A program made the position numbers and the translations under genes. Positions 1,367 to 33,762 of a stretch of DNA of 33,762 nt are shown here, in pieces. How positions within the stretch are numbered: position 1 is the first letter of the stretch; every line of letters starts with the position of its first letter. The DNA is from Chiloscyllium plagiosum. Lineage: Eukaryota. The DNA lies in the NCBI RefSeq assembly GCF_004010195.1, contig NC_057751.1, positions 10,189,173 to 10,222,934 on the forward strand, written 5' to 3'. The notes beneath the pieces are model-generated. The model had not been told where the DNA came from. It made no database searches and saw only the letters and a program-made list of their open reading frames with translations.

Positions 1367-4300
1367 GTGAGGCACTGATCTTTTAACCTGTTGGGAGAAC
1401 TGTTGCAGGAGAGACAGATTCCATCTGAGGATTTAAGTTTCTTCTGAAAGGATTGAAAACTGTAGCCCATCATGGGATACTAAAGGTATCGCAGTCAGGG
1501 TTTTGTTTTGATTCAGAATAACTGACCAATGCTTCAGTTACCTGACATTCTGCTTTTGCGTTGCATTGCAGCATTATCTTTTTTCAGGCAGCTGACTGGA
1601 ATTCCCCTGGGAACCAACATGCTCAGATTCATTCTGTTACAAAAATAGAAATTGCTGGAAAAGCTTAGGCTTGGCAGCATCTGAGAAGAGAAATCAAAGT
1701 TTGTTGGGATCACGTGACCCTTTCTCAGGAGTTCTGAGGAAGGACCTGAAATATAAACTGATTTATTTCCACGATGCTGCCAGTCCTGCTGAGCTTTTCC
1801 AGCAGTTTTGTTTTTTCTGCATCCACAGTTCTTTTGATTTTCATTTGGTTAGTTCCTTTAAGCAAGTTAGATTGAAATGTGTGTGCTGTAACCAACCATA
1901 TTCTCTTAAAGAATTTAAAGAATATCATTTATATAGTCTTGTCACTGTTTTCACAGCACAGGATGAGAATGTAATGACCAGTTGTCTTGAATTGTATCTG
2001 CATTAAATGTGGATAGATATTTTTCCTTTTTTTTGACAGTATGATGGTCCATTTGTCTTTGTGCCTCTTCATAAGTCTCGCCTCGACTACCTACTGGTTA
2101 CCTTTGTCCTTTTCTGCCACAGTATTAGAGTCCCATACTTTACTTGTGGGGAAGATGTCCAACTTCCATTTCTCAGGTAATGACTGAAACCACGGTCAAG
2201 TATTTTCACACCTTTGAGTGTGAAGAATGTGCGGTTTTCTTGTGTTTTTTTACCATTTGGTTCAGATGTGTTCAGCAGTCCCACTGTCAGCAGAAGGTTT
2301 ATTTGCTTGTATACATGTGATTGTCTTGGGCAGAAAACGACAAGATCAGTTTTCTTCAGGTTGGGCATATATTTGTTATTTCTGTGCAGTGTTTAGATTG
2401 AACCTCCAGAATTGCTATTGTTAGAAAGCATCATGACTTTTTCACAAACTAAAATGCAGCACAGCCTCTGTGCTTGGATGTCTGTTTGCTATGCTATTGA
2501 TATTCATCTTGTTTTTCACCTGCTCAGGCCTCTGCTTCGGAAATTGGGAGGCATTTTTACTTCACATGATCATGGAGACCACTTGTTCCAGGTTGTTTTA
2601 AATTCGGTATGTGAGAAACATTTTCTTCTTTGAAATACTTCATGAAATCTAAATTTGCAACACTTGATCTGAGAACCAATTTGAACTCAGCGAAGATGGG
2701 TTTGTGTTCTTGATGTGAGTTACTTTGTCATTTTTAATTCGAGCAGATACAACAACAGTCTTGAAAGCTGGGCAGAATCATTTTGGGGAACTGACCAGGC
2801 CCCCTCCAAAATGTAATATAATTCCACTTCACCAATTATTGTGAAACGTATTAAATATTATGCTGCATGTAAAATGTAGTGACTCCGAGGCCTTGAGGAG
2901 AGAGTGTTTAACCAATATTGTTGTTCAATATGCTGCCTACAAATGTTAAAAATGTTGTACTTAGTTCCTCTGCTTGTTTGTCGTTACAGTTGGGGTATCA
3001 AGCAAGACAGACAATGTCTGTCAGGGCGCAGTTAGCTAAAGGAAGAAATCAGTTTGGACTGAAACTACTGAAACCAGACTGAAAATAATTTTTTTTCCCA
3101 ACAAGCAAACATGGTTCACGTAATGATCCAGCTCACATGAGGAACAAGCCCATTCTTTATATTTTGCAAAATCAGACGATATCTTGCATTTCCTAACTAA
3201 GAAAAATGGAATAAGATACACCCATGAGCTTGTTACCAAAAATAGCTGGGAATCCACAGTTGATCTGAAGCTGAAATAGTATTGTTTCAGCAAAGACGTA
3301 TCATCCTTTAACTCAGTAAAAACTCAAAGAACTGCAGATGCTGCAAATCAGAAACAAAAACAGAAGTTGCTGGAAAAACTCAGCATCTGGTAGAAATCAC
3401 AGTTAACATTTGGGTCCGGTGACCCTTCCTCAAGACCCAAAATGTTAACTCTGATTTCTCTACACAGGTGCTGCCAGACCTGCTGAGCTTTTCCAGCAAC
3501 TTCTGTTTTCAATGCTTTAACTGTTAGTGCATTGACACACATTTTGATCACTTCATTTTTTTTGTTCAGCTGGAAGTGTGAAGGAACATTCATTTACTTA
3601 AAAGATCTCAAGGACTGGGAATTGGTATTCTGGAGCCAGTCGTTAAGCTGGGTACAACATGGACAATTTATCTAATTGCCTCCTGTTCCTCCTCCGAATG
3701 ACCCTTTGCTGTCAAGTTTTTCAGAGAGACTTCAACCTGGCTTTTTTCGAAGTGTTGGAAAAATAGCCTTCTGTTTCTCTTGCTCTCTGTAGCTTTCCTC
3801 CCCACCTTTTTATTTTCTCCTTTCCTGAAAAGTAGTGACGTTACATTCCTCCTAATAGTCATAAGAGCATCCAAACACTGTGTTTTGACTTCTTCTAATT
3901 ACATACCTGCCATCCAGTTTGTGTTCTCGAAGTTCGCACACATGCATATAGATAAATTCAAGCACTAAGCCTCACCATGTAGTTGTCAGATGTTGTTCAG
4001 CCCATGCAGGATTAGGGTATCAGGCTTCTGCTAAATTGTTTGGCTGCGGTTCTGAAGTAGTTTGATTTTCTTCACTGTTTTTCATTTTACAGTACATCGA
4101 GGAACTGTTGAATGAGCAGCAGAGCCTGGCAGTTTACCTGAAAAGTCCTGTTTCATGTCCTGTGCTTTCAAGTCTCTCAGGATTAGTGTGGTTGTCTCAG
4201 GTGTTTGATGTTTTTCAGAACTGTTTAATACCAGATGCAGTTCTCATACCTGTTGGTGTAGCTTATGATCGCATCGTAGAGGAAAACTACTTGGAACAAA

Positions 4301-7300
4301 TGGTAAGATTGTTTGTGTGCAACCTTGGAGATGACATGAAAATTACTCAGCATGGTGATTGGACTTTATCAGACCTGCACATGATTATTATTTCTGGTTT
4401 GTGAAAGAAGCTTCATCCTATCTGAACATGAATTGTATATGTTTTCTTGTTTCATCTAATCCTATAGTATGAGAATGACAAGTGTAAAGATTGACTTTGG
4501 CGCTTAATCTTGGTTTTGCAAGATTCAAAAACCTACAGTCTTGAGTGAACTTTGAATTGAGTCACATCTGTCCAGAAAGCAGGCAGCCACTTTGCATACA
4601 GTGGCAGAGAGGAACACTGGTTAGGAAGGCAAGACAATTTTCTGTTCTTCACATTGTGATTTGAGTTATTTTCTTTCATGTGAGCAGGCAAAGCCAATAT
4701 TGATTTCATACTTCTTCGATCCATGGTATTGTACCTTACTGTCCACCTCTATCACGTGTGTGAGACATTGTGTTTATGTTCTGCAAACAACAGTTATCCA
4801 CCAGGTAGTAGGTAGGAATGGTTCAGGCCTTGTTTCCAGGAAGAAGCAGAAAACACATGACAATCGTAATTGAGAGGGTGGGTATTTGGAGAGTGGTGGT
4901 GGACATGCAAAGGGATTGCATGTCCTTGGTGGTGAGGAGACGATTTTGAACAGGAAATGTTGACATAGATATGAAATGTGAGAAGAATTGCACAAGTAAG
5001 TGGGGAGGGGTTTGACAAGGGGAGAAAAAAATCAAGTCAAAGTCAGAAAAAATAAGTTCACTGAGGCTGGCACAAGTAGAAACATTTGATCTATCTGGGA
5101 AGCCATGTTTGTGGACTTTGGGAAAAGATACAGGATTGGGTCAATGAGCTGAGAAGCTATTAGGAGAAGGTCATCAGATGAGGCGAAGTTGGTGACATTT
5201 GTGGACACAATAACCTGATGCTTCATTGTATGGTCACTATCCAGGGAAAATTGGAGAAAGTGTCCATGAGGTGGTGCTCAGCCTCAACAATGTAGAGGAC
5301 AGTGTGCCAGACAACAGTAGCACCACTGTTTTGGCAGGCTTGATGACAAAGGTAGAATTGGATCGAGTGCACAGAGTGCCATCAGTTCAAAGAGCATTAG
5401 ATTAGGACAGTGAGGAGGACAAAGAAATTCATGCAACCTATGTCACATCAGCAGTTCCAAATGAACACATTGAGTGAACCTAAAAGGCCAATAGAAGGGG
5501 TCCAGATCAAGGGTGAGTGTTGGAGGTAGGTGAAGTTGCCTGTGGGACAGGGAGAGCACACCTGTCCAAAAGAAATGAGCATGGAAGTTGAAGTGACGGA
5601 AAAACAATTCACCGTAATCGAGCCCAAAATTCATGGACTTGGGGGTTCAGGGGGATAAAACTAAGACTTTTGCTGTGTACGGAACGTGCAACATCGCAGT
5701 GTAAGATCGAAAGGGATAATAAAGAAATTCTGAGAAAGTTTGAGGAAAGCTGCATTTGGTGTCATTGATGCACGAGAACATAGAACATTTTCATTGAGGA
5801 GCAGGAATAGATCATTCAACCCTTGTTCTTCTGTTTCCACTCTTCTCTAATATCATGGCTGATCTGATTTTGGTTTCAACTCCACATTTCTGTCCATGTG
5901 TGTTAAACTTTGATTGTTGCTGGACCTGAGGTTCCTTAATCTTTTGATAATTTTGATTAATTGGTTGCTAAACACTGCTGTTCGTTCGTGTGCAAGAATC
6001 AGTTAACTGGTGTTACTGAACCTGGGTATTTCTTGAAATTAAAATCAAAGTTAAAACCTTCAAAAACCTCAATTGATCCAATGGTTCTAAACTGGACTTT
6101 TCGAATATCCAATCCTAGACACTTGAATTATCAATTCGAGATGTCAATTTGTAACTTAAATAATTTGCAATTTAGTGACAAGACAGTAACTTCAGTGAAA
6201 AATCATTTAAAAAAAAGTAATGTTATGTCTTATTCAAACTCCATACTGTTTGTTTTCCGCCACATTTCCACAAAAGACAGTCAGACAGACAAGTGCATTT
6301 TAGGGATAAATGAAAGAAAATGACAAAATTGGCCAGGTCACATAGGTGGTTTTCATGATACAAGGTTTCCACAGGAATAGATTATTGTTTCAAGGTTGAT
6401 TTTCCAAAGATATTGATCAGGGCTATCTTTGCAGTTCACTGACAAGAAGTCTGTAATACTTCAAACTCGGTTTCTCTACTCTGAACATTCAATAGCTGAT
6501 TACAGGGGGTTAGCCAGGGAGCTTGCAAATCTTCATGCGGTGCCATTAACAGCCAAACTAATCTGTTGGACTATAACCTGGTGTCCAATATGATTTTTCA
6601 CTTTACTCACAGAAAACATAGCCCAAAAAGCTAGTTTAACATTCTGGCCTCTCCCCGTCAAACTGACTGTCTCCCCACAAGGTCTGAGTTCCAGTTAACA
6701 TTGGCTATTTGCTTGAACTTTCGAGGCATGGTGGAACTGACTCTGAGGTTCGTCCTCCTTATTGACTAAAAGTGCTGTGTTTCGATATAATGGTCTTCAC
6801 CAGTAAAAAATCATCTATAGAATCTTTTGTTCAGGGATCAACTTGCAATTGATTCTAGGCCTGACCTCTCAAATAAACAAAAGCTTGTTTGTCTATTTTT
6901 TTGCAATACAAGCTGTTGGATGCAGACCAAATGTTACTTTCAGTTCACAATTTCCAATTCACAACTCTAAACCAAAACTGATGACGCAATAAAATTTTAA
7001 AAATGAAAAATCTGTGGGTGTTCCAACAAAGCGAACATTGACTCACCCTTTGAAAGGCTGCAACAACTTTAGAAAAGATCACCCAAAGTACTGTCTTGAA
7101 CAAAGAGCCCACGAACAGGCCCTTCGGCCCTCCAAGCCTGTGCCGATCCAAATCCACGATCTAAACCTATCGCCCAATTCCTAAGCATCTGTATCTCTCT
7201 GCTCCCCACCTACTCATGCATCTGTCCAGATGCACCTTAAATGAATCTACTGTGCCTGCCTCTACTACCTCTGCTGGCAACGTGTTCCAGACACCTACCA

Positions 7301-10300
7301 CCCTCTGTGTAAAGTACTTTCCGTATGTATCCTCAAACATTTCTCCTCTCACCTTGAACGCGTGACCTCTTATTATTGAATCCCTCACCCTGGCAAAAAA
7401 AGCTTATCTCTGTCCACCCTGTCTGTACCCTTAATGACTTTGTAGACCACAATCATGTCCCCCCTCAATATCTTTTTCGAATGAAAACAATCCTAACCTA
7501 TTCGACCTCTCTTCATAGCTAGCACCTTCCATACCAGGCAACATCCTCATAAACCTTCTCTGCACCCTCTCCAAGGTGTCCACCCACGTCTTTTGGATAA
7601 TGTGGTGACCAGAACTGTACACAGTATTCTAAATGTGGCTGAACCAAAGTCTTGTACAGTTTTAACATGCCCTGCCAGCTCTTATACTTAATACCCTGTC
7701 CGATGAAGGCACGCATACCATACACCTTCTTGACCACACTATCCACTTGTGCAGCCATCTTCAGGGTACAATGGACGTGAACTCCGAGATATCTCTGCTC
7801 ATCAACTTTTCCCAAGGCTCTTCCATTTATAGTATCGTTCGCTCTAGAATTAGACCTTTCCAAAATGCATCCCCTCACATTTGCCCAGATTGAACTCCAT
7901 CTGCCACTTCTCCGTCCAAATCTCCAGTCTATCTAGATTCTCCTGTTTTCTTTGACAATCCCCTATGCTTTCTGCTACTCCACCAATCTTCGTGTCATCT
8001 GCAGACTTAGTGATCATACCACCAATATCCTCTTCCAGATCATTTATGTACATCACAAACAACAGTGGCCCTAGCACTGATCCTTGTGGAACACCACTGG
8101 TCACCTTTCTTCATTTCGAGAAAGTGGGGAACAAGAGAAAGGGTTGGTCCACTAAAGGATAAGGAAGGAAGGTTGTGTGTCGAAACGGATAGGATCTGTT
8201 GATATATCTTCAACTACTACTGTCTCCTGTTGCTCAACCAGTTCTTTATCCACCTTGCACGAACACCCTGCACATAATGTGACTTAACTTTCTTCATGAG
8301 TTTCCCATGGGGAACCTTATCAAATGCCTTACTTGTCCATGTATATGGCATCTACAGCCCTTCCTTCATCCATCAACTTGGTCACTTCCTCAAAGAACTC
8401 TATTGAGTTGTTAAGGCACGATGTCTCCTGCACAAAACCATGTTGCCTATCACCGATAAGCTCATTATGTTCCAAATATCAATAGATCCTATGCCTCAGT
8501 ACCTTCTCCAGCAACCTTCCCACCACTGATGTCAGGCTCACTGGTCTGTAGTTACGCGGAATATCCCGACTACCCTTCTTGAACAGGTGACAACATGAGC
8601 AACTCTCCCGTCGTCCGACACATTACTTGTGTTTAAGGATGCTCCAAAGATATCTGTCAGGGCCCCAGCTATTTCCCCTCTCGCCTCTCTCAGCAACCTG
8701 GAATAGATCACATTCGGTCCTGAGGATTTGTCCACCCTATTATCTTTTCGCCTACCCAACACATCCTCCCTTCTTTATGTCAGTGATCCAGAGTAAACAA
8801 ACCTCTATCTCTAATCGCAACATTTATTCTGCCCCTCTCCTCAGTGAACACTGATGCAAAGTAATCATTGAGAATCTCCCCCATTTTGTCAGGTTCGGCA
8901 CACAATCTTCCTTCCTTATCCTTTAGTGGACCAACCCTTTCTCTAGTTACCCTCTTGCTTCTTAAATATGAAGAAAATGCCTTAGGACTCTCCTTAATTC
9001 CGCTTGCTCAAGTTATTTCATGAGCCCTTTTAGCCCGCTTGATTCCTCGTTTAAGGTTGTTTCTACTTTCCAAATATTCTTCCAAAGCCTGTTCTGTTCT
9101 TAGCTGCCTGGACCTGAGGTATGCTTGCCTTTTCCTCTTGGCTAATCACATAATTTCTGCTGTCATCCAGCATGATTGAATCTTGCCTCTCCTATCCCTT
9201 GTTTTCAAAGGGACATGCCTATCCTGCATTATCTTCAACCTATCTTTGAAAGCCTCCACATATCAAATGTGGACTTACCTTCAAATACCTGCCCCCAATC
9301 CACATTTCCCAGTTCCTGCCAAATTTTGATATAATTGGCCTTGTCCCGGTTTAATACTCTTCCCTGAGGACCACTCTCATCTTTGTCTACAAGTATTCTA
9401 AAACTTAAAGAATAGTGGTCACTGTTCCCAAAGAAATCCCCCGCTGCAACTTCTACCACCTGGCTTGGCTCATTTCCCCAACACCAGGTCCAGTATGGCC
9501 CCTTCGTAGTTGGACTATTGACTTATGCTCTATAAAACTTTCAGGATGCTCCTTCCAAATTCTGCCCCATCCAGACCTCTGACATGAAGTGTGTCCCGGT
9601 TAATGTTGAGAAAGTTAAAATCTCCCAACACCACCATCCTGTTGCCTCTACATCTTTGCATAATCTGTTAACCTATTTGTTCTTCTACGTCAAGGTCACT
9701 GTTGGGATGCCTGTAATACAGCCCCAACAATGTATCTCCACCCATAATGCCTCACTACCCAAGCCCTCCATTGTGTCCTCCTTTAGCACAGCCATGATGC
9801 CATCCCTGACCAGTAATGCAACTCCTCCCCCACCTTTTACTTCCCTTTCTGTCCTGTCTGAAGCACCTGTAGGTCAGGCAGCATCCAAGGTGCAGGAGAA
9901 TCAGCGTTTCGGGCATAAGCCCTTGAGGCATTCCTGAAGAAGGGCTTATGCCCGAAACGTCAATTCTCCTGCTCCTTGGATGCTGCCTAACCTGCTGCGC
10001 TTTTCCAGCAACACATTTTTCAGCTCTGACCTCCAGCGTCTGCAGTCTTCACTTTCTCCTGAAGCATCTATATCCTGGAACACTTGGTTGCCAATCATGT
10101 CCTTCCTTCAACCAAGTCTTTGTGATCGCAATAATGTCATCACCCCCAGGCACCAATCCAAGCTCTGTTTGTCTGCCTTACCGCCTATACTCCTTGCACT
10201 AAAGCATACGCACTTCAGACCATCAGTTCCCTTGCATTCCTCTGCTCTCTGTCTTCGCTTCCCCTTAGTAATGCTAACTTCATGATCCTGTTTCTTAGAG

Positions 10301-19300: not shown

Positions 19301-22300
19301 GGATGCAGCATTTGTAAAAGAATGGAAGGAATGTTTTGCTGAGAACCTGCTTTCTACAACAAATGGTTGTACCCCTGTTAACATTGCTCTCTGTCATTTT
19401 GGTACTCAATAAAGTGTTGTGCACTTCCAGTATTTATTTCTGCTTTGATTAGTGCTGAGTATTCTTCCGTCATTTCACTTGGAGTCTGTCTGCAAGTGAA
19501 CTGATAAAAAAAAATGCCCATGGATGTTGTTTTCAAGTTCAGTATCAACTTGGTTTTCTTCAGCTGTGTTTATTATGCTGTGAGATAATGTTTCTGATTG
19601 TGTATTGCATAATTATGAGGAGTGTTTAGCATAGAAAGGAGCAAAACTTGATGCTGTCCATGCTTCGCAACAGCAACCAATTCCTTCCTCTGATGAAAGA
19701 GTAGTTTGATGGCAATCAAAGATGGCTTGTGTGTGCAGGATGGTAGAGAGCCTATGTGGTGTATGACTGCGGACACTTCCCACGTCAAACCTATCATCTC
19801 TTTTCTTTCAGCCTGTGCTTTAAATTCACTTCTAAGGGAAGTGGCTAAATACATGGTGGACTGGGACTCCGATGCAGAGGTTGCAATCAGCCAAGAGGAA
19901 CTTATCTGTAAAACTGTTCAGCTGTGTCAGTTACTCTCCAGTGAGACACTGCTTCTACCAGTAAGAACAGTAACAGTTTGTATTCAGAGATTAAAACAGA
20001 GCATATTGTTTAGAAAAGAAGTGATTTTAAGTTATGGGAATTGAAGAAATTCAACTAAATTGAATTGATTGACTTATTGTCACTTGCATTTTAAAGTGAG
20101 TAACAGAATAAAATCCGATGAAAAGCTTCAAATGTCAGCTCAGTCTAGTGCTATTTTGAAGAGTTTAAGGTAAAAAGATAGAACTGAAAGAGAGTTCATC
20201 TTCATTCCACTGCCTCCACCCTGAGTTCTGAACTAGCTCACCAGTGACCCTTGCAATGCCACCCTGCAACATCTGCGCCAGACCCACCACTGTAGCAATT
20301 GCCACCCTTTAGGTGCCATCTCTTTGCTGCTAGTCTCATTTCACCGTTGCTGAATCCCATGCTGAATCCACAGTCACCCTGCAAATGAAGACACTTGAAA
20401 GTTGCCATTATAAATTTCTGCATGGATATTTGTGTCTGACAAAGCTGAGCAAGCAATGATGTGATCGAAAAAATTGATGACGAGGAATGTTAGGCCTTGG
20501 ACCGATACTTCAGGAAACAAGACCACGCATTTGGTGGTCGTGCTTTTAGAAGTTTTGGCATTAAATTCTCGAATGATGTTTCTGCTTCTCGACATTGCTT
20601 AATTCTGTGTGTCCCACTTGAGCCCCTCTTATTTCGCGGAGCATTTTGGCGCCATTTTTAATAACTATTTGTTTGACTGAGCATTCATTTTGTTTGTTAC
20701 ATAAATTACCTTGGCACATTTTTCAGTTTTAATTCAGCTTGTGACGTGCAGGGGGAGTTCAATCAGTAAATAGTGGTGTTATTCGGCATTATGTTATTTT
20801 CCTATGCCTGAATGATTTCTATTAAAAACATTTATTTTCAGTTGTTTCCTTACTTTCCACCATAACAATCTGTATTTTACTTGAAACTCCTGCAGCCCTG
20901 CCAGTCAGTGTACCAGTTTTCACAGGAAGCAGTGGACAAGCTGATGTATTGTGAGATTCTTCTCATGGAGGAGGTATGATCATTTTTCTAGTTACTGTGC
21001 TGATGAGAAGGTGACTCATGGGAGTTAGTGTTTTGTTTCAGTCATCATTGGAAATTTGGATTCTGTGGTTGTAGACAGCAATGTGAAAAGTTATTCCTGA
21101 CATTATCCGGATCTTTAGCCCAGGACACTTCTATTGAGAAAGTGATAAACAAAACCTTTGGGATTTTGACCTTTATCAACTGAGGTGTAGAGTACAGAAA
21201 CTAGATATTTGCAGTGAGTATGTACAGAACCCTCGATTGGCCTCAAAAAGATTATTGTGCCATTTCTGGGCGGCACATTTCACAAAGTATGTGGCAGGAA
21301 GTGCCACCATGTAGAATGTTTCTTGAGAATGGTTGCAGAGATCAAGTACTCCATGTTTGTGGATTGGAGTATCCTTCAAGGAGAGAAGATTAAGAGAACA
21401 TTTTGTCAAGGTGTTCTTAATCATGAGCCTTCTGCACAGACAGAGAGAATGTTCTTTGTGGTTGAAGGACGGAGAGGCAGTGTATTCTGATTTAAAGAGA
21501 TTGACACATTCCAAAGCATTTTCATACAGCATAATCTGAAATGCATTATTTGAGAGTTCAGCGGAGGCAGATTTATTCAAAGAAGAAATCGGATAATTAT
21601 CTGAAAAGAGGAGTAATTACAGTGTTGAGCAAATATGACTAGTTGAAATGTTCTTGCAGAGTGCCAGCACAAACATTATGGACCAAACAGCCTCTTTCTG
21701 GGCTGCAACAGTCAAATGATTCCACATATTCTCTTCAGATTTTAAAAAACAGGTTGTTACATTTCAAAATAAAAACAGAAATTGTGGAGAAACCCAGCTT
21801 CTCAGAAGAAGTGTCATGGAATCTGAAAGTCAGCTTTCCCTCCACACATGCTGCCAGACCTTCTGAGTTTCTCCAGCAATGTCTGTTTTTATTTCAGATT
21901 TCCAGCATCTGCAGCTCTTTGTTTGTTTTGTATGTGAACTGCTTTTGAATGTTCGAGAGAAATAATGGTCTGTCTTGTTCCATTTTGGAATTTATGAGGA
22001 GACTTGTGGACTGTAGACGTTGAGAGACTGAATTTAAATCCAGGTCTGAAAAGGTTTCTCATTCACACAAAGGTGTCAGAGGCAAGTTTTTAGTTTTTCT
22101 TCCTGTGCATAGGATCAGGCGATGGAAACAAGAGTCTACAGCCTATTGAGGACAAACTAATGAAGGTCTTTTGTCCCACGAGTGAAGTAACCAGTAATCC
22201 AAATTTAAAAACCATAAGTGTGATAGTTGCCAATGAAATCAATCAGGAACCCATTGGTTAGATTGTGAAACTTGACCACAAGGAATAGTTAGGACAAATA

Positions 22301-25300: not shown

Positions 25301-28300
25301 CCACAAAGAAATCTTGCAGTTGCAAAAGACCAAGACATTTTTTAAGCCATGCAAGTTAAAATATGTATATTCATTTTGAGGCATCAGTGGGGCCTGAGAA
25401 CTGAATGGACCTCCACCTTTGTTTGGCAAACGAAAAAGTTCCTTGAACCAAGTGCATATTCCTTTTTGGCCCAGTTGATGTTTGTCTATATGTGTCCGGG
25501 AAACAGCCCATGGAGCATGGAGTCCTGAGTCAGGGAGCTCTCAGGACAATCCTCAGCAAAAACCACTGCATTTCTCTTCAGATCATCTTTACAAAGGCAG
25601 ATAGTGGGAGATAGTGTAGGACTGTCTTTTTCCCCTCTGTAGCCAATTCAAGGGCAGCATGTGGTGGTGGAGGAAGTACTGATGTTCACAAAGGATCTCT
25701 CAGGCAGTGCTTTTCTCACTATGAGCTAAGCCACATCTTGGTGCTTGTTGGAAAGCTCTGATTATAAGGCATTCTGCCAAATTATTTCAACAGTCTTGCT
25801 CATGGAACCACCTCACAGGATAAATCCTCTCATTTTCCCGCAGGGTCGTGAGGACACCACATGCTGACCACTGTTAGATGAAGGTCTGGTCAAATGTGTT
25901 TTCCTTGGCAAATTTTACATGAGGGCCAGTAATATGAAATGTTTCAATCACTTGAAGTGTTCTATGGCACTGAGGCCAGACCCATCCTTAGCAACACCGG
26001 AGACAGGTAGAACCTCAGTAAACACTGTCACTGAGTGTTTTCTTACTAAGCACGCAGCAGCCATCAGGATGAAGGTGGTGTTGGGTATGACCACCCCCAT
26101 CCAGAACTTTATAAATGTTGTCCCTGCAGACACGATGCATCTTACCTCCAAATCAAGTGGAAAATGGCTTGGGTGACGGAGGCACAGGCCCGCAGAATGG
26201 ACCAAACCTGCACTTTGTACAGCAACACTGAGAGTACTTCACACCTGATAATCAAGCTTTTAGCCGAAATGGAGAGGGAGTAGTGCTCCCATCTGTCTTA
26301 TTTCTGCCTCACCTTGACAAGATGCTCTTTCCAAGTTCTGGTGCAAGCCATGGCTCCCTCTGAGTCACGTAACCAGCTCGTAGAGTAGTCTAATCCGATT
26401 GCAGATTCCCTCCCCAAAGCACGTTTTAGAGAGCCTGTCCCACCTGTATGTTGAAGACCTTTTGTCCAGAGTGATGAGGCAGGTGTCCATCCCCCTATGC
26501 TGCAGGTAGGCAATCGTAACCCTGAGCATTGGGAGGCTTTCAGGAATCACCCTGTCCAATGCAGCACAGGTTTGGTCGGGATGATTCATTGATTCACGAG
26601 CAGACCTGATCTGGTTGGTAACTATCTTATATTTGACTTTATAATCTGCCTTCAGCAATGACGATGGTCAATTTGTAATTTCTTTCTGCTTGTAGAAGAG
26701 GGGGATGATATCTTTCCAAAATTGGATTTGCACATGCTACCTCCCAGAAGCATATACATCCAGCAGGTCCTGGCCAATCAAGTCCCGCAGAGGTGAATAT
26801 AACTCGGCCAGAAAGCAGTCGCTTTTGGGAGTTTATTCTTTTCAAAGCACTCGAGGGCCTTAGCTCATTCAGAGGTAACGGCTGTTCCAGCCTCTTCCAC
26901 ATGCTGTCATCGAAGACCTCAGTGATAGAGGATGGGAATGACCAGGAGGCCGGGCTGTCTTTGGGCTTCGTGTCATACAGCCTGACATAAAAATGATTGC
27001 TGATCCTCAGGATGTCAGACTGAGATGACATTTCTGAACTATCTTCTTCCTTCAGGCTGCTAATCACAGTGTTCTCCCTGTGTACCTTCTGGATGAAGAA
27101 AAGTGAGCACGTTTCATCCTGCTCCACAGTGCAGATCCTGGACTAGAAAATTATCTTGAAGATCTTTGAGGCAAAAAAACCATGCTTGCTGGCAGTTCAC
27201 CTCTTCGGGGTCCCCATTACCCCCATTGCATGCAGCAGGAGTAGTTTCTTCCTGCTTGTCTGGAATTTGGACAGTTATCCCTGTCTTTCTTTCTCACCTT
27301 CTGAATACCTTTGAGGTTAAAGAAGCTGTTGATATTCTCCTTGAATGTTTCCCGCCAATCCGCTAGAGACTCAAAGAGGGGCTTCATGGTTCTCCAGCCT
27401 GTATAATCCCTTTGCAGCTCCTCAGTGTTTTCTGGGGTAAAGAGTTTTGCGTTCAGCATCCATTTTCCCTTGCCGGCCTGCTGGTTGTACTGTACACCAC
27501 AGTTGGTGAGCACAAGGCAATGGTCAGAGAAGAACACAGCCTTGACGCTGATGGATCTGACAGAGAATGTGGGGGATTGACTCATCCATGCTGCACTTCA
27601 TCTGCATGGGTGCAGAAAATGTTACGCGGCTTGGCAATCGCAAATCTGATTTGGTGTCCAGTTGCTGTCAGTCCCCTGGATTGAAGTTTCCAGCCAGAAT
27701 GTTGTCAGCAACAGTTCCTGATGGCTGGAGATTGGGTTTCACTGGGCCGCTCACAACTTCCAGATTGGGTGGTGATACTCTCCTCCCCTGAGGTGCTGTG
27801 CCTCATTTGTTTGGTTAATGGTTATCCCTCTGCATGACTTTATCAGAGGAGGTGATATGTCCATCATCCAGCTGCCTCTTTCTGTTTTGCTGTTGGCCTG
27901 ACATGTTTTCCTTTTTCCAGTTGTTTCCTATCAGTATATGTTCCCCTGTCTCCTTCATTTCCTCCTCCTCCATTGACTCCATTTGTTCAGGTGGACATTG
28001 AGTCAGTTGTTGTGCCGCCACTCTGGCAACCACAATCCATCGATGATCTCGAGGTCTTGTGCTTAAAGTTTCAGTTAAGATTTATCCTAAGAGAACCACC
28101 TTTTGGATCACCTGACTTGATTGGCCAGGATCTGCTGGATATATATGACAGCATGCTTCTGGGAGGTAGCATGTCCAATTTGCAAATCCAATTTCGGTCA
28201 AAGTCAACTGTGTACCTCCATCAACCTGACTGTGCTCTTGACACTCTCGCCTGACACATGGTTATTTGCAGTGGTCGTAGCTCTGGCTCTGCTGCGCCGG

Positions 28301-30309
28301 CATGATGATGCACCATTTGCACCTCAGTTCAAGCTACAATCCTTCAATGTCCAATCAGAATCAGGCGATTATCTTAAAACCCTCTGATGACTTGCAACTC
28401 TTAAACTTGGTCAGAGCCAAAGGGCCAAGAAGTGAAAGCTCTGGATTCAGTCTGTTAACAATTGAATACCAGCTCCCCATTACTGGCTGTCCTGACATGT
28501 GTCTCTTGTTCTGTTTTGTTCACTGAAGTTTTTCTTATATTATCAGTCTTATTTTCTGAACTCAAAAATAGCAACAATCCACACTTCACAACTGCTTGAG
28601 CATGACAAGAGGCTACACTACATTGGACAAACGGGCAGAAAACTAGCCACCAGGATACATGAACATCAACTAGCCACAAAACGACATGACCCTCTCTCAC
28701 TAGGAAGGACACCACTTCGACTGGAACAATACATCCATCCTAGGACAAGCCAAACAGAGACATGCACGAGAATTCCTAGAAGCATGGCATTCCAACCGGA
28801 ACTTGAGCAATGAACACATTGACTTGAATCCCATTTACCACCCCCTGAGAAAAAGAACAGGAAATAACATCACCAATCTGAGGAAACCCAAACATACATA
28901 GAAAGCAGGAAACGCCAGCAGTGCTTCATCTAGAGGTTCACTGAAGATGTTACCTAGGATGCTGACGAAATGTCTGAAAATGAACCTTCCAGCTCAGTGA
29001 GCAAACCTACATACAGAACCTCAACCTGAGCTATAAATCTTCTCAAAACTTACTAATCCATCTGTCACTCCACAAAAGGTCTTCATGCCTGAAGCAAGTT
29101 AGCTAAAGTACTCGGAGAAAGATAGGCAAGCTTATTTTATTCTCTAAACAAAACCAAGTCACATTAACAAGAATTGCATCTTGCTCCCACACTGAAGTAA
29201 GTGAACTGCTAAAAGAGGCAGAAAATACATGCAGCTCACAACAACTGTAGAGAGCTCGCATACATTGGTCTGTTGCATACTGGAAGTCAGAACTAATCCA
29301 TTTTAAAATATAGCTCTGTCCTTGTGGAAAAACCTTCAACCTCAGCATTTTCACACTTGTAAACCTTGCGTCATAAAACCAGACTTGATTTTTGACCAGG
29401 AGCACCAATGCTCTCAAAGGGTTTTATAACTAATCACAGTTAAACAGAAATTAATTGAATTCTTCATTTGTTGAATCAGGTCCAAAACAAATGCAAGTGT
29501 ACAATATTGCTCTGCATCAGAATTTATGTGGCTTGAATTGTTGTCCTTGTGCTCTGCTGTGACTTCCTGATGAGATTTTTGAGACCATTTATTAGTGACA
29601 AAGACAAGGCTGAAGTATTTGCAATCGTCTTCAGCTGAAAATACTGAGCAGATGATTCATCTTTTTTTCCTCTTCGGTCTGTGTTGTCATGGATGCCACC
29701 CATGTGATATCAAAAAATTGCTGAAGGTACTGGATACAAAAAGGCTATGTGTCCTGATCGCATCGTGTGTGCAGCAATGAAAACCTTGGTGCCAGAACTA
29801 GGCAGGGTTTTAGCTAATACTTCCAATACAATTATGCACCTTTGACTATCTGACAATGTAGAAAGTTGTCCAACCTTGAAAAAGACAGGGCAGTGCATTG
29901 TGACCGTTTACATCTATACCTCAACTACCTTGAATAGTATGTGCTTGCAAAGACTATTACCTGCAAGTTCCTGTCAAATCACACACTACTCTGACTTTCA
30001 ACTCCTCAATACTTCATTTATAACTGGATTATAAACCTGTATACCTGCGTGACATAGACTGCAGCGTTCAAGAAGGTAGCTAACCACCAGTTAGTCAGTG
30101 GCAATTAAGAGTGGACAATAAATGTTTGACCTGAAGTATTTGTCACACTTAATGTATGATTAATTTGAAAGATGAACAATGAAACAGTTTTTGGTGAAGA
30201 TGAGTTTAGTTTTGAATGCATGCATCACTAAAGCATTTTCAAACATTTTACAGGAAGTGCCACAGTCAGCATTGTAAACAGCGCTATTAAGATCTTCAGG
30301 GAATTGGGG
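1267..30309 (+). CDS. GPAT2: Mitochondrial glycerol-3-phosphate acyltransferase 2, partial gene (15 internal coding exons; N-terminal exons and final exon not found in window)
   Basis: Manually spliced exons give one uninterrupted frame of about 589 codons collinear with GPAM/GPAT2. It includes HKSRLD (HxxxxD), LRKLGGIF, IPDAVLIPVGVAYD, KNYGCIRMDFGQP, VMSTTILACLL, EVLARHFDVGFSG, ELSFYSN and PCQSVYQ. The segments PACDT..W.., FFLFLCSLLQP and the lack of FLEGTRSR favour GPAT2 over GPAM (comparison from recalled sequences, no search run). Confidence 0.92.
1640..1839 (+). mobile_element. Short palindromic PLE-terminus-derived element (subfamily B)
   Basis: Inverted arms (attgctggaaaagctt...ggcagcat / atgctgcc...agcttttccagcag); degenerate CTGAGGA core at 1734; candidate TSD ttcattctgtta (1628-1639) / ttcatttggtta (1840-1851). 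Confidence 0.7.
2040..2176 (+). CDS. GPAT2: GPAT2 exon B (137 bp): YDGPFVFVPLHKSRLDYLLVTFVLFCHSIRVPYFTCGEDVQLPFL(R), acyltransferase motif I
   Basis: Long T tract then gacag|TAT...AG|gtaatg; HxxxxD motif; phase 0 to 2. Confidence 0.95.
2528..2606 (+). CDS. GPAT2: GPAT2 exon C (79 bp): PLLRKLGGIFTSHDHGDHLFQVVLNS, motif II region
   Basis: ctcag|G...TCG|gtatgt; KLGG.F motif; phase 2 to 0. Confidence 0.92.
3318..3510 (-). mobile_element. Short palindromic PLE-terminus-derived element (subfamily B)
   Basis: aaaacagaagttgctggaaaaactcagca / tgctgagcttttccagcaacttctgtttt inverted arms; GGGTC-CGGT-GACCC hairpin near the centre; similar to 1640-1839. Confidence 0.75.
4093..4302 (+). CDS. GPAT2: GPAT2 exon D (210 bp): YIEELLNEQQSLAVYLKSP...IPDAVLIPVGVAYDRIVEENYLEQM, motifs III/IV
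   Basis: ttttacag|TAC...ATG|gtaaga; phase 0 to 0; motif IV IPVGVAYD. Confidence 0.95.
4870..5770 (-). mobile_element. Degraded Penelope-like element, reverse transcriptase region
   Basis: Minus-strand remnants ELFFRH..HAHFF, SNSTFVIKPA (cf. IKPADKG), LYLFPKVHK (cf. YLLPKIHK), LPTY, LLTTKDMQSL (cf. TMDVQSLYT); frameshifted. Confidence 0.8.
5778..5900 (-). mobile_element. Degraded CR1-type 3'-end fragment
   Basis: catagaac...aggagcaggaatagatcattcaacc...atcatggctgatctg resembles 33320-33482. Confidence 0.55.
9872..10058 (+). mobile_element. Short palindromic PLE-terminus-derived element (subfamily A) inserted in the CR1 LINE
   Basis: 54-bp inverted arms 9871-9924 / 9940-9993 (49/54 match); flanked by ctgaagcacctgta (9858-9871) / ctgaagcatctata (10059-10072). 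Confidence 0.85.
9934..9961 (+). ncRNA. Minimal hammerhead-ribozyme-like core
   Basis: CTGAAGA-A-GGGC-TTAT-GCCC-GAAA-CGTC: both catalytic boxes, 4-bp stem II, palindromic ACGT in place of stem III; stem I poorly paired in this copy. Confidence 0.65.
12079..12094. promoter_or_regulatory. Perfect 16-bp palindrome containing a consensus CRE (TGACGTCA)
   Basis: tttgtgacgtcacaaa is its own reverse complement; function unproven. Confidence 0.3.
12242..12349 (+). CDS. GPAT2: GPAT2 exon E (108 bp): GPGKTSIFAAVRWVLRFLQKNYGCIRMDFGQPVSLK
   Basis: ctgtag|GGA...AAG|gtatga; matches KNYGCVRVDFAQPFSLK; phase 0 to 0. Confidence 0.95.
12655..12815 (-). mobile_element. Old L2-like LINE 3' fragment
   Basis: tgcatttatatagtgccttt 3'-end signature followed by aaatttgac...aaggagat...ggtgaccaaaa; recognised by eye only. 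Confidence 0.5.
12921..13006 (+). CDS. GPAT2: GPAT2 exon F (86 bp): DYIENEGMHLCSSAIPLQKILLPCVLGC(S)
   Basis: ctctag|GAT...AG|gtgagg; L..LLP.. pattern; phase 0 to 2. Confidence 0.9.
13279..13617 (-). mobile_element. CR1-type LINE 3' fragment
   Basis: Reverse-complement similarity to 320-645 (GLFPRVPESK..RYKKDLR..). Confidence 0.85.
14025..14360 (-). mobile_element. Degraded DeuSINE (SacSINE1/AmnSINE1-like)
   Basis: Reverse complement reads taaaagattccatgac...ccaatgttgatccctcaattaacattact...atcacattgctgtttg...cctgaggtcatgaaaggcac, resembling the Deu domain and L2-type tail as recalled. Confidence 0.7.
14934..14989 (-). mobile_element. Short fragment of the subfamily B PLE terminus
   Basis: aaagaactgctgatgctgtaaatcagaaatgctggtaaagctcagcagg resembles 3326-3385. 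Confidence 0.65.
15045..15163 (+). CDS. GPAT2: GPAT2 exon G (119 bp): TDAVYYEKSQDWLLNNDELIQLSKHHRALVADLGRHMLY(T)
   Basis: tttcag|C...A|gtaagt; R.LVA.L..H.L pattern; phase 2 to 1. Confidence 0.9.
16105..18078 (+). mobile_element. Degraded, internally deleted non-LTR retrotransposon (second LINE family, clade not assigned)
   Basis: Endonuclease-like remnants (HEVLWYQIKNG; VMREPTRRKSMLDFV), IEAWADK..VIF..CQ RT-thumb-like remnant, tail ending tgaatgaatgaaa; shares sequence with 29590-30150. Confidence 0.7.
18100..18520 (+). mobile_element. Very degraded CR1-type 3' fragment
   Basis: gagcagagaagattcaggggata, ggaaactgttt, atttcttgacagagttg resemble CR1 ORF2 C-terminal DNA. Confidence 0.45.
18609..18679 (+). 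CDS. GPAT2: GPAT2 exon H (71 bp): ASCSSAVMSTTILACLLFHKHQQ
   Basis: ccgatag|CT...CAG|gtaggt; matches AIMSTHIVACLLLYRH; phase 1 to 0. Confidence 0.93.
18743..18867 (-). mobile_element. Short PLE-terminus-derived insertion (subfamily A) with 16-bp TSD
   Basis: Reverse complement of 9935-10058; flanked by cattgatttgcaaatg (18727-18742) / cattgatttgaaaatg (18868-18883). Confidence 0.85.
18995..19256 (+). CDS. GPAT2: GPAT2 exon I (262 bp): GIFLSTLAKDFCWLMNEVLARHFDVGFSG...ELSFYSNSILPVFLGEAVA
   Basis: ctccag|GGC...G|gtaagt; phase 0 to 1. Confidence 0.96.
19812..19960 (+). CDS. GPAT2: GPAT2 exon J (149 bp): (A)CALNSLLREVAKYMVDWDSDAEVAISQEELICKTVQLCQLLSSETLLLP
   Basis: tttcag|CC...CCA|gtaaga; ISQE.L...LC.LL pattern; phase 1 to 0. 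Confidence 0.94.
20896..20973 (+). CDS. GPAT2: GPAT2 exon K (78 bp): PCQSVYQFSQEAVDKLMYCEILLMEE
   Basis: ctgcag|CCC...GAG|gtatga; phase 0 to 0. Confidence 0.94.
21130..21722 (+). mobile_element. Degraded CR1-type 3' fragment
   Basis: Collinear with 1-645 (gtagagtacaga, tgtacagaaccct, tgtgccatttctgg, gaagattaagaga, ggaccaaacagcct..tgattc). Confidence 0.65.
21766..21930 (+). mobile_element. Short palindromic PLE-terminus-derived element (subfamily B, degraded)
   Basis: aaataaaaacagaaattgtggagaaac / gtttctccagcaatgtctgtttttattt inverted arms; atgctgccagacc and ccagcatctgcag shared with the other copies. Confidence 0.7.
22780..23540 (+). mobile_element. Degraded CR1-type ORF2 3' region
   Basis: tggcagatg..ttaatacaagtgtgaa, tactgtgtgcagattttgtct and aagggccaaatag remnants collinear with the other CR1 copies. 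Confidence 0.6.
23592..23723 (+). CDS. GPAT2: GPAT2 exon L (132 bp): NENKQPACDTWQKRFGKEMTWKVMDDFDDSESDTDETVWTCYFK
   Basis: tttgtag|AAT...AAG|gtataa; acidic DSxSD patch typical of GPAT1/2; phase 0 to 0. Confidence 0.93.
24173..24293 (+). CDS. GPAT2: GPAT2 exon M (121 bp): LGQTQESHTFFLFLCSLLQPVLKVYETAAGLLHKLDFPIE
   Basis: ttccag|CTT...G|gtattg; FFLFLC.LL.P; phase 0 to 1. Confidence 0.93.
24843..24902 (+). CDS. GPAT2: GPAT2 exon N (60 bp): (E)PQCVLKMFQLLNAQGEEQH
   Basis: Strong pyrimidine tract ttcag|AG...G|gtgagt; phase 1 to 1 links exons M and O. Confidence 0.85.
25184..28500 (-). mobile_element. Degraded Tx1/L1-like LINE
   Basis: FFSDHCLV..GKGKWMLN (endonuclease end), EQDETCSLFF, FYVRLY, LLKADYK..HPDQTCA..RVI.ESL.MLR.TIAY (RT start); 3' end ttttatgaataaagcatattttt; 5' boundary uncertain. 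Confidence 0.85.
28615..29055 (+). mobile_element. 5'-truncated Penelope-like element: GIY-YIG endonuclease remnant plus terminus
   Basis: HYIGQTGRKLATRIHEH, then after a frameshift GHHFDWNNTSILGQAKQRHAREFLEAWHS; followed by a hammerhead motif at 28941. Confidence 0.9.
28937..28978 (+). ncRNA. Minimal type I hammerhead-ribozyme-like motif in the PLE terminus
   Basis: TTCA-CTGAAGA-T-GTTA..TGAC-GAAA-TGTC-TGAA: stem I TTCA/TGAA, stem II GTTA/TGAC, both core boxes. Confidence 0.7.
29590..30150 (+). mobile_element. Degraded fragment of the same LINE family as 16105-18078
   Basis: caaagacaaggctgaagtatttgcaatcgtcttcagct matches 17203-17240; gactgcagcgttcaagaaggtagctaaccac matches about 17967-17997. 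Confidence 0.7.
30254..30309 (+). CDS. GPAT2: GPAT2 exon O (56 bp): (G)SATVSIVNSAIKIFRELG
   Basis: ttacag|GA...GGG|gtaagt; matches SATYCLVKNAVKMFKDIG; phase 1 to 0. Confidence 0.92.
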
Positions 30310-31811: not shown

Positions 31812-33073
31812 ATAGAATCATAGAGCTGTACTGCATGGAAACAGACCCTTCAGGTCCAGCTCCTCCATGCTGACCAGATATCCTAAATAAATTTAATCCT
31901 ATTTGCCAGCTTTTGGCCCATATCCCTCTAAACCTTTCTTATTCATATATCCATTCAGATACCTTTTAAATGTTGTAATTGTACCAACCTCCACCACGTC
32001 CTCTGGCAACTCATTCCATCCACACACCACCCTCTGCATGAAAAAGTTGCCCCTTAGGTGCGTTTTAAAACTTTCCCCTCTCACTTTAAACCTATGCCCT
32101 CCAGTTTTGGACTTCCCCACCCTGGGAAAAAGTCCTTGTCTATTTATCCTATCCATGCTCCTCATGATTTTATAAACCTCTATAAGTTCACCCCTCATCC
32201 TCTGATACTGCAGGGAAAATAGCGTCAATCTATTCAGCTCCTCCCTATAGCTCAAACCCTCCAACCCTGGCAACGTGCTTGTCAATTTTTCTGAACTCTT
32301 TAAAGTTTCACAACGTCCCACCGACAGCAGGGCAACCTGAATTGCACGCAGCATTCCAAATCAATGTCCAGTACAGCTGCAATATGAACTCCCAACTCCT
32401 ATACTCAGTGGACTGACCAGTAAAGGCAAACACACCAAATGCCGCCTTCATTATTCCATCTACCTGCAACTCCAATTTCAAGGAATTATAAACCTGCACT
32501 CTAAGGTATCCTTGTTCAGCAACACCTTTCAGTGTATAAGTTCTACCCTGATTTGCCTTCCAAAATGCAGCATCTCCCATTCATCTGAATTAAACTATAT
32601 CTTCCACTCCTTGGCCCGATGGCCCATCTGATCAAGATCCCATTGCATTCTGAGGTAACCTTCTTTGCTGTCACTACATCTCCAATTTTGGTATCATCTG
32701 CAAACTTAACAAACATACCTCCCATGTTCACATCCAAATCATTTATGTACATGACAAAAAGCAGTGGACCCAGCACCGATCCTTCTAGCACACTGCTAAT
32801 CACAGGCCTCCAATCTGAAAAGCAACCTTCCACCACCACCCTCTGTCTTCTACCTTTGAGCTAGTTCTGTATCCAAATATCTAGTTCTCCTATTGGTTCG
32901 TGTGATCTAACCTTGCTAACCAGTCCAACATGAGGAACCTTGTCGAATGCCTTACTGAAGTCCATATACATCACGTCCGTTGCACTACCCTCATGAATCC
33001 TCTTTGATAATACTTCAAAAAACTCAAGTTCATGAGACATGATTTCCTATGCACAGAGCCATCTTGACCATCC
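31812..33073 (-). mobile_element. CR1-type LINE, 5'-truncated, includes RT core
   Basis: GSVLGPLLFVMYINDL..KFADDTKIG, RGELIEVYKIM, FMQRVV..WNELP. Confidence 0.93.
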
Positions 33074-33082
33074 GTGAGTCCA

Positions 33083-33310
33083 GGGATCGATTAGCTCAGT
33101 TGGACAGCTGTTTTGCAAAGCAGAGTGATGACAACAGCGTTTGTTCAATTCTTGCATCCGCTAAGATTAACATGAAGGTATCTCCTCCTGAACCTCTCCC
33201 CTTGCCTGAGGCATGCTAACTCTGAAGGTAATCCACCAGTACTCATCTCGTGCTGTCTCTCGGTTTCGTGAGAGAGCAGCCTTGTGGTCTGGTGGGATTA
33301 CAGCAATTTT
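33083..33310 (+). mobile_element. tRNA-derived SINE (degraded)
   Basis: Pol III A box TAGCTCAGTTGG (33092-33103) and B box GTTCAATTC (33143-33151), followed by a non-tRNA body; no cloverleaf. Confidence 0.6.
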
Positions 33311-33319
33311 TGTCCATGA

Positions 33320-33482
33320 GAGCTAGGAGCAGAAAGGAGGACACAATTCAGCCCCTCAACCTTGCTCCACCGTTTGATATGATCATGACTGATCTCATGT
33401 CCTTTTCAAGCCCACTTTGCTGAATCCTCTTCATAACCTTTCAACCCATTATAGATTAAAAACTTGTCTATCTTGTTCTTAA
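33320..33482 (-). mobile_element. CR1-type 3'-end fragment (different subfamily)
   Basis: aggagcagaa..attcagcccctc..gatcatgactgatctc..cataaccttt; resembles 5778-5900. Confidence 0.55.
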
Positions 33483-33658
33483 TTCTGGATCAGTGGTGCT
33501 GGAAGAGCACAGCAATTCAGGCAGCATCCGAGGACCCACTTTGCTGAATCCTCTTCATAACCTTTCAACCCATTATAGATTAAAAACTTGTCTATCTTGT
33601 TCTTAATTCTGGATCAGTGGTGCTGGAAGAGCACAGCAATTCAGGCAGCATCCGAGGA
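33411..33658. repeat. Exact 124-bp tandem duplication
   Basis: 33411-33534 is identical to 33535-33658. Confidence 0.97.
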
Positions 33659-33762
33659 CAAGCAAAATCGACATTTCGGGCAAAAGCCCTTCATCAGGAA
33701 TAAAGGCAGAGAGCCTGAAGCGTGGAGAGATAAGCTAGAGGAGGGTGGGGGTGGGGAGAGAG
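33483..33762 (-). mobile_element. Penelope-like element terminus related to subfamily A (runs off the window end)
   Basis: gtgctggaagagcacagcaattcaggcagcatccgagga..tttcgggcaaaagcccttcatcagg is homologous to 18790-18866; carries a hammerhead core. Confidence 0.75.
33670..33697 (-). ncRNA. Minimal hammerhead-ribozyme-like core
   Basis: Minus strand CTGATGA-A-GGGC-TTTT-GCCC-GAAA-TGTC. Confidence 0.65.

Follow-up and report, generated by a model that had tools for sequence, protein, structure and literature searches.

The window analyzed here, a stretch of 33,762 bp from Chiloscyllium plagiosum NC_057751.1 within which all positions are counted, carries a GPAT-family gene (match to GPAT1, E value of 7.5e-12). 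Pieces of Penelope-like elements (PLEs), placed in its introns by eye, account for 1,586 of the 33,762 bp. Six are short stubs of 58 to 199 bp that belong to two related groups. Group A comprises the pieces at 9872, 18743, and 33607, with mutual identities of 80 to 91%, and group B those at 1640, 3318, 14934, and 21766, which are 79 to 88% identical across aligned parts; A and B share ~70 to 75% identity over 100 nt. A profile search of the window returned no further members of either group, the arm pattern of A and B had no match in the viral or metagenome contigs searched, and no reading frame is open across all arms. The six short and two longer pieces named in a preliminary description of this DNA are present, and the relatedness that it proposed holds within the two groups. 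Its two longer PLE termini both exist but have to be redefined: the piece at 28601 belongs to an unrelated family, and that at 33483 is a 52-bp duplicate, the long terminus being 33607 to 33762. We found no description of these pieces from sharks in the article texts searched; chondrichthyan families may be listed in the supplements of Li et al. 2026 and Cervera and de la Pena 2014.

Anatomy and flanks of the pieces

Four of the six stubs form head-to-head palindromes in which one arm is longer, in agreement with the earlier account of a complete arm joined to a shorter inverted one. In the group B palindrome at 1640 to 1838, the minus arm ends at the tail-less site and the plus arm has a partly deleted tail; both hammerheads are decayed, and the arms join 1 to 3 nt upstream of the CUGA box. 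The asymmetric group B palindrome at 3317 to 3509, also with a decayed core, has a minus arm bounded by the CUGA box on one side and by the outer edge of a 40-nt tail on the other; its plus arm begins within stem II and lacks the tail. At 21766 to 21926, a tail-less minus arm of group B with a large internal gap is joined to a tailed plus arm, and the core is decayed. The group B fragment at 14932 to 14989 (minus strand) consists of the tail region alone, without a hammerhead.

The group A palindrome at 9872 to 10058 sits in an older repeat. Its plus arm, which has an intact core and a tail, begins 4 nt before C3 (9934); its minus arm is interrupted at the center by a 10-nt gap and stops ~30 nt before the tail-less site. 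The group A piece at 18743 to 18867 (minus strand) is a single arm that begins one base into the CUGA box and continues through the whole tail, with two mismatches in the core. A long copy of the group A variant A′ occupies 33607 to 33762 (minus strand), with a tail-less 3′ end, an intact core (C3 at 33697), and at least 65 nt upstream of the core before it runs into the window end. The tail that this copy lacks is supplied by RNA reads (loose end at 33606, 146 reads). The 3′ end of A′ is present a second time as a 52-bp piece that lacks the hammerhead core (33483 to 33534, minus strand) and sits in a perfect 124-bp tandem duplication (33411 to 33534 and 33535 to 33658). Family C (28601 to 29052, plus strand) is the 5′-truncated end of an RT/GIY-YIG PLE and contains a frameshifted endonuclease C terminus, the 3′ UTR, and an intact hammerhead core at 28941 to 28974.

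The four palindromes have four different centers, the internal gaps of the arms skip the ribozyme region, and the tail is one-sided in three of the four. None of the pieces ends in poly(A), as had been described, and the window contains no head-to-tail ribozyme tandems. Target site duplications (TSDs) of 11 to 16 bp were significant against 398 random flank pairs at three of the seven loci tested (each P < 0.01), namely, 18743 (18727 to 18742 and 18868 to 18883; 15/16, P = 0.005), 9872 (9858 to 9871 and 10059 to 10072; 12/14, P = 0.008), and 3318 (3303 to 3313 and 3512 to 3522; 10/11, P = 0.008). Candidate TSDs of 8 to 16 bp had been proposed for several pieces; that at 1640 proved marginal (1628 to 1639 and 1840 to 1851; 10/12, P = 0.06), and none was found at 14934, 21766, or 28601.

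Published insertions of EN+ PLEs show an inverted, 5′-truncated pLTR, a one-sided 30- to 40-bp tail, TSDs of 8 to 10 bp, and palindromes at the junction (PMC3846280; PMC8557442). The combination of a one-sided tail, variable TSDs, and an inverted copy matches the published PLE signature, and the likeness extends to head-to-head arms and solo end pieces. In contrast to the insertions described in the parts of those accounts considered here, the shark insertion often consists of two arms alone, occurs at very high number, and has the longer TSD range given above.

Hammerhead cores

A structural descriptor identified three intact minimal hammerhead cores in the window (9934, plus strand; 28941, plus strand; 33697, minus strand), compared to 0.05 in 60 shuffles. 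The CUGANGA and GAAA boxes, stem II, and the UH triplet are present in these three copies, only one of which, that at 9872, is among the six tiny pieces, and there the first stem I pair is broken. The core is decayed or missing in the other five stubs, and no group B copy (the GGGTC/GACCC type) passed the descriptor, even with two mismatches allowed. Stem I measures 0, 2, and 4 bp across the three intact copies. At 33673, the letter most frequent among genome contigs is that of the palindromic form of the helix III remnant, a form that is altered in two of three window copies. The preliminary description had seen shared boxes with complementary stem II sequences and a structure kept while the sequence changes. 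This holds to the extent that stem II differs among the three families, but the rarity of intact boxes among the tiny pieces narrows it, and covariation within a family was not demonstrated. Rfam returned no hammerhead family at an E value of ≤10, and single-strand folds of eight core regions were no better than shuffles (z of −1.8 to +0.7), as expected for minimal motifs. Read ends formed no pile at the cleavage site among 1,506 RNA reads, a weak test given the poly(A) single-cell library.

In metazoan PLEs, minimal type I hammerheads occur mostly as isolated, scattered motifs that have been attributed to truncated PLEs, and some are paired on opposite strands (Cervera and de la Pena 2014, PMC4209133). 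The predicted shark ribozymes share with them the CUGANGA box, one extra base, a stem II closed by G-C, the GAAA box, and a candidate palindromic remnant replacing helix III. They differ in that group A′ has a stem II of 4 bp and a stem I of only 2 bp, and no shark is named in the portion of that paper considered here.

The 5′ end of A-type copies in two genomes

Contigs of two species were placed on one 223-bp stretch, with A′ rather than the A and B stubs themselves as the query. The stretch drew 37,488 and 37,171 contigs in the two species, which bears out the abundance claimed earlier, although neither contig counts nor depths translate into copy numbers. In both genome runs, the top-listed loose-end site was 33701, which precedes the CUGAUGA box by 4 nt and held 853 and 923 contigs; position 33700 held 283 and 292 further loose-end contigs. 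Continuations past 33701 are long and unlike one another (agreement of 0.31 to 0.33). Because the loose letters share their first 5 to 6 bases, part of the step at 33701 reflects subfamily divergence. Summed depth drops from 4.9 to 2.3 million across 33692 to 33715 (run X1) and declines slowly thereafter. Longer copies are common, with ~40% of the summed contig depth continuing 20 to 35 nt upstream of the core. The ends precede the cleavage site (33670/33669) by ~31 nt, and no loose end falls at that site among the 18 of 563 loose-end sites listed. All eight opposite-strand joints listed have one side at 33697 to 33706, and a single asymmetric junction was seen repeatedly in both species, in 18 and 17 contigs. 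Within the window, five of eight loci end within −9 to +1 of C3 (P < 0.001 under uniform truncation, calculated post hoc). Truncation of these copies is not random, and the sharp 5′ end at 33700 to 33701 agrees with the earlier expectation that they are not simply random truncations. A fixed 5′ end at the edge of the ribozyme is not mentioned in the parts of the EN+ PLE accounts considered here (PMC3846280; PMC8557442).

This 5′ end, which predominates among A-type copies across the genome, coincides with the A, at 33701, of an initiator-like heptamer at 33697 to 33703 (minus strand). The initiator consensus is YYANWYY, and the heptamer is its only match in 150 positions, with a background of 0.0115 per position. 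The consensus is a degenerate one, the check covered a single subfamily, and families B and C lack the motif. RNA starts showed no listed pile at 33701 among the 1,506 reads, again a weak test, with both strands about equally represented. A 3′ splice site was rejected as the cause of the fixed end for A′, since the bases preceding position −4 are not AG.

Origin of the stubs

The pieces are most likely ribozyme-bearing ends of Penelope-like elements, of a known kind. The stubs are probably pLTR terminal modules of EN+ PLEs, arising as by-products of autonomous elements in the form of run-off cDNAs from the 5′ repeat. The terminal module, or pseudo-LTR, would consist of a minimal hammerhead, about 60 nt, and an optional 30- to 40-nt tail and would be inserted by the PLE RT/GIY-YIG protein via target priming. 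We infer that the PLE mRNA has its 5′ end within the upstream repeat, ~4 nt before the CUGA box, in which case the fixed end would be the transcription start. Reverse transcription would begin at an internal site, one or the other of the two tail edges, and with the 5′-proximal repeat as the template it would run off the RNA end after about 90 to 130 nt. One primed strand would give a single arm, and two primed strands (presumably twin priming) or fold-back would give a head-to-head pair, with every insertion creating a new joint between the arms across a few matching bases and the tail typically remaining one-sided. The ribozyme would not set the ends and would decay after insertion.

Anolis Poseidon PAc in vitro has two RT start sites that bound the tail, primes both strands, and starts reverse transcription internally; 5′-shortened RNA gives shorter products, the ribozyme is dispensable, and RNA beyond the RT start is required (Frangieh et al. 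2024, PMC11167929). That system likewise shows no RNA termini at the cleavage site, and its RT start sites account for the outer ends of the shark stubs; genomic run-off stubs and a fixed inner end are not described in the sections of that account considered here. A more specific form of the run-off reading, which we offer tentatively, is that the stubs are fossils of a “strong-stop”-like product, in which the mRNA would start at −4, a dimeric RT-endonuclease would prime both target strands at the two tail edges of the 5′ repeat, and the run-off cDNAs would be joined head-to-head.

An RT/GIY-YIG open reading frame lies upstream of the core in family C and in non-shark look-alikes, and two protein searches with arm translations linked none to A or B, which would have had a coding parent of this type. 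Family C was rejected as that parent, its local scores being 16 to 28 against a null maximum of 25, with nothing alike beyond the core. In non-shark DNA, the core lies 222 to 316 nt downstream of GIY-YIG pieces in 8/8 tblastn hits, and the palindromic minis L043 and L061 are 89 to 92% identical to the end of the GIY-YIG-bearing L048. The non-shark palindromes were scored for TSDs without a null (9 of 12 such loci examined), and of these scores only that of L043 (17/19) is used here. Upstream extents in non-shark families range from a few to hundreds of bases, and a sharp 5′ end may not be general to PLE families.

The preliminary description had favored a separate, non-autonomous, retrozyme-like family, that is, a self-standing “ribozyme-only” retroposon whose stub RNAs would come from the same start and be remobilized in trans by the PLE protein. 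The very high abundance with a sharp common 5′ end speaks for this, as do the lack of a long group B member in the window, the missing coding parent of A and B, the junction recurring in both species, which could be an amplified master, and published non-autonomous PLE derivatives (PMC8557442; Li et al. 2026, bioRxiv 10.64898/2026.07.22.740005, in the parts considered here). A short self-propagating RNA may exist, above all for group B. As a general explanation the self-standing retroposon is nevertheless unlikely, and the claim of a separate family was not supported: the palindromes do not share the single junction of a master copy, long A′ siblings are common, the ribozyme is dead in five of six stubs, and the stubs lack the RNA beyond the RT start that the anole protein needs, if the shark element is alike. 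Animal non-LTR retrozymes, found in the single chondrichthyan sampled, are likewise noncoding, derived from the PLE pLTR, and equipped with a type I hammerhead, with dispersed monomers; their tandems are head-to-tail, with a ribozyme in each unit (Li et al. 2026). The shark pieces are single or head-to-head, and because they form no head-to-tail units in the window, end away from the cleavage site, and have four different centers, we conclude that they are not retrozymes.

An origin from the 3′ repeat of full-length RNA, with the fixed end produced by an endonuclease recut at ATT (−4) or by an RT stall after the folded ribozyme, is improbable to a greater degree. Bases 33701 to 33699 on the sense strand are ATT, ATT is also the target favored by the anole enzyme, which can nick the repeat of its own element (PMC11167929), and the arm gaps bypass the ribozyme region, but the end falls on the sole initiator-like motif, and a stall would be expected 3′ of the ribozyme, a side on which the sites listed include no true accumulation of ends. 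Purely random 5′ truncation could draw on the slow fall in depth upstream of the core, the broad spread of extents in non-shark families, and the heavy truncation known for PLEs (PMC8557442, in the part considered here); it is largely refuted by the sharp step and shared top loose-end site in two species, by the eight listed inversion joints hinged there, and by the five window loci that end within 11 nt of one another. DNA-transposon MITEs, which as small inverted-repeat elements bearing TSDs resemble the palindromes, are refuted because the TSD lengths are variable and the ends asymmetric. Symmetric terminal inverted repeats with a short fixed TSD were not found; instead, the arms are unequal, single-arm copies are flanked by TSDs, the TSDs are long, and a hammerhead core lies at the center. 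In this respect the earlier reading of the pieces as PLE-type, hammerhead-headed, retro-inserted MITE look-alikes is upheld by their anatomy and TSDs.

These very abundant shark repeats, which annotation tools might take for MITEs, hairpin RNAs, or SINEs, are most likely Penelope ends. The wider value lies in the fixed 5′ end, which gives one base to check by CAGE. If the “strong-stop” reading is true, the inverted ends of PLEs would be explained without the antisense self-priming proposed in 2013, the transcription start would be mappable from DNA alone, and the hammerhead would lie at the mRNA 5′ end, where cleavage would remove the capped first ~30 nt. Tens of thousands of shark junctions make models of PLE inverted ends and of the role of the hammerhead directly countable.

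Anatomy of the hammerhead-bearing pieces

Repeat finding, alignment, and profile search of the whole window confirmed six short pieces (stubs, at 1640, 3318, 9872, 14934, 18743, and 21766) and two longer ones (28601 and 33607); the profile search returned no further members of the stub groups in the window. Group A comprises 9872, 18743, and the variant A' at 33607 (80 to 91% identity), group B comprises 1640, 3318, 14934, and 21766, and family C is represented by 28601. Groups A and B are ~70 to 75% identical over 100 nt, and family C resembles them only in the ribozyme core (local scores of 16 to 28 versus a shuffle maximum of 25). An exon at 2040-2174 matches GPAT1 (E value of 7.5e−12), a match to be read at the level of the GPAT family, not of a paralog.

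Of the six stubs, four form head-to-head palindromes. Judged against 398 random flank pairs, target site duplications (TSDs) were significant at 18743 (15/16), 9872 (12/14), and 3318 (10/11) and marginal at 1640 (10/12, P = 0.06), while none was found at 14934, 21766, or 28601. Three of the four palindromes have a one-sided tail of at most 40 nt, and the opposite arm ends where the tail starts; in 9872, the short arm ends ~30 nt before that site. The 9872 target site (9858-9885) shares a 6-base likeness with the sequence that continues the element, which hints at possible homology-assisted priming of the short arm. All four palindrome centers differ, and two, read by eye, are joined over 2 to 4 shared bases. 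In 3318, the tail is on the arm extending to the CUGA box, whereas 21766 has it on the opposite arm, an arrangement that suits two primers better than a simple fold-back. For 5 of the 8 loci, the end of the longest arm falls between −9 and +1 relative to C3, a base of the CUGA box (P = 4.5e−4 under uniform truncation over 200 nt, with offsets entered by hand and the interval chosen post hoc). The stubs are target-duplicating insertions of a hammerhead-plus-tail module, with mirror arms of different centers, a preferred inner end at −4, and long siblings.

Other repeats were seen in the window. A perfect 124-bp tandem duplication (33411-33658) bridges the junction between the tail of an older repeat and the A' 3' end and is either very recent or an assembly artifact. 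Short inverted repeats at 26728-26784 and 28114-28178 (94 to 96% complementary, ~1.3 to 1.4 kb apart) lie within a long intronic insertion, and the long LINE-like repeat that hosts the 9872 element contains a 71-bp inverted copy (8119-8189 and 8889-8959). A candidate tRNA-like SINE head was judged by eye at 33065-33300.

Ribozyme cores and coding relatives

A structural descriptor identified three intact minimal type I cores (9934 and 28941 on the plus strand, 33697 on the minus strand), whereas 60 shuffles averaged 0.05, and a second core search of the window agreed. Only one of the six tiny pieces holds an intact core, so the preliminary description of the stubs as hammerhead bearing fits the ancestor and not most copies. 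The 18743 core has two mismatches, and no group B copy passes the descriptor at two mismatches, a level equivalent to chance (9 hits versus 7.6 expected). The Rfam search gave no match. Among the 40 of 70 variants listed for A-type contigs, those in the core were nearly all CpG-type changes, apart from one loop II change, and covariation of stem II was not observed within group A.

Pieces of family C match P0002, a carpet shark protein with both RT and GIY-YIG domains (83%, and 27/28 residues), and their Pfam matches fall below curated cutoffs; the family is an RT/GIY-YIG element in truncated form. Two protein searches found no coding match for groups A and B, so for these we infer a parent. 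Proteins P0001 and P0003 to P0006, four of them from carpet sharks, are host gene models that include the C terminus of the family C endonuclease, representing either exonized Penelope-like element (PLE) pieces or annotation noise.

As an outside control, metagenomes were scanned for the same core, which yielded at least 122 stretches; 121 loci with 126 core matches were analyzed. In the best 40 blastn matches, these resembled the shark arms over the core only. All eight tblastn matches to P0002 (seven loci) were on the strand of the core, 222 to 316 nt upstream of it, and all four that were tested matched Pfam GIY-YIG, two above the cutoff. A clear adjacent inverted arm was present in 12 loci, two of which are probably one insertion. 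Locus L043 is a ~255-bp palindrome with a TSD (17/19) and a one-sided 38-nt extension, and it is 89 to 91% identical to the end of the GIY-YIG-bearing locus L048. Because these non-shark loci share the architecture, stub anatomy is general to PLEs. A larger form occurs at L079:153-1341, where head-to-head 539-bp PLE ends (95% identical) each carry a GIY-YIG piece and a hammerhead.

Ends of A-type copies in two species

The sole A-type copy with upstream sequence (33540-33762) was compared with public data at 80% likeness in 4 of 24 listed runs, and it matched 37,488 contigs in the host species (X1) and 37,171 in a second species (X13). Among the 18 of 563 loose-end sites listed, the most common in both genome runs was 33701 (853 and 923 contigs), which lies 4 nt upstream of C3; a further 283 and 292 contigs ended at the neighboring 33700, and none of the listed sites fell at the cleavage site (33670/33669). 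Ends at 33701 and 33700 account for about one-fifth of partly matching contigs (5,215 in X1 and 5,374 in X13). Continuations past 33701 are long and barely agree (0.31 to 0.33), and the first 5 to 6 loose letters are shared, so part of the step reflects another subfamily that diverges upstream. Summed depth in X1, which is not copy number, fell from 4.87 million (33692-33699) to 2.98 and 2.29 million and then slowly to 1.75 million (33732-33739), with a similar profile in X13, indicating that long copies are common and that a sharp step is also present.

Of the 14 joints listed, eight are between opposite strands, and each of these has one side within 33697-33706; perfect palindromes are probably underassembled in contig data. 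An asymmetric inverted joint, 33658|33701, was seen in 18 contigs of one species, 17 of the other, and four RNA reads. It equals a symmetric palindrome minus ~40 nt between two 4-base repeats and reflects either recurrent deletion or amplification of a small family.

RNA evidence came from run X21 alone, as X22 contributed 0 reads. X21 placed 1,506 reads on the A' stretch, about equally on both strands, in which neither starts nor ends piled up, and an X21 loose end at 33606 provides the tail missing from the 33607 copy. On the sense strand of 33607-33762, one of 150 positions matches the initiator consensus YYANWYY (background of 0.0115 per position), and the A of this match is at 33701; neither group B nor family C gave a match.

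Origin of the stubs

Passages of a study of an anole element (PMC11167929) report that its protein nicks and extends both strands, that RT starts internally at two sites flanking the tail, that 5'-shortened RNA gives shorter products, and that ribozyme cleavage is dispensable; the protein also requires the initial 172 nt of the ORF, past the RT start reported at 111-118. By analogy, we lean toward a run-off reading of the stubs in which both strands are primed. If −4 is where shark PLE mRNA begins, reverse transcription of its 5' repeat would give run-off cDNAs of exactly stub size. Priming of both target strands would produce head-to-head pairs with the tail on one side, and the resulting stubs, lacking the downstream binding sequence, would be dead on arrival.

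That the stubs descend from a short self-propagating RNA is unlikely, and somewhat less likely still is structural release, or recutting by the endonuclease at the ATT at −4. Random truncation would accommodate the metagenome families, whose upstream extents vary from a few bases to hundreds and count against the run-off reading. The clustering of inner ends in the window argues against it and, together with the sharp step at 33701 in two species, upholds the earlier proposal of nonrandom ends; we regard random truncation as very improbable and an origin as MITEs as scarcely credible.

Related structures are described in parts of the PLE literature. Minimal hammerheads dispersed in the thousands, some of which form opposite-strand pairs, have been attributed to truncated PLEs (Cervera and de la Pena 2014, PMC4209133). 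Also described are inverted copies with tails and TSDs, palindromes at junctions, solo terminal repeats (pLTRs), transcription start inside the pLTR, and nonautonomous derivatives (Arkhipova 2013, PMC3846280; Craig 2021, PMC8557442). Tandem retrozymes derived from pLTRs are reported in one chondrichthyan (Li 2026, bioRxiv). Searches of the literature found no paper that describes these shark families or reports an end fixed at the edge of the ribozyme. Anatomy, TSDs, and GIY-YIG-bearing non-shark siblings corroborate the suggested PLE origin, while the separate, retrozyme-like family that had been proposed is not supported. We conclude that the stubs are real and abundant and of a PLE kind that is already known.
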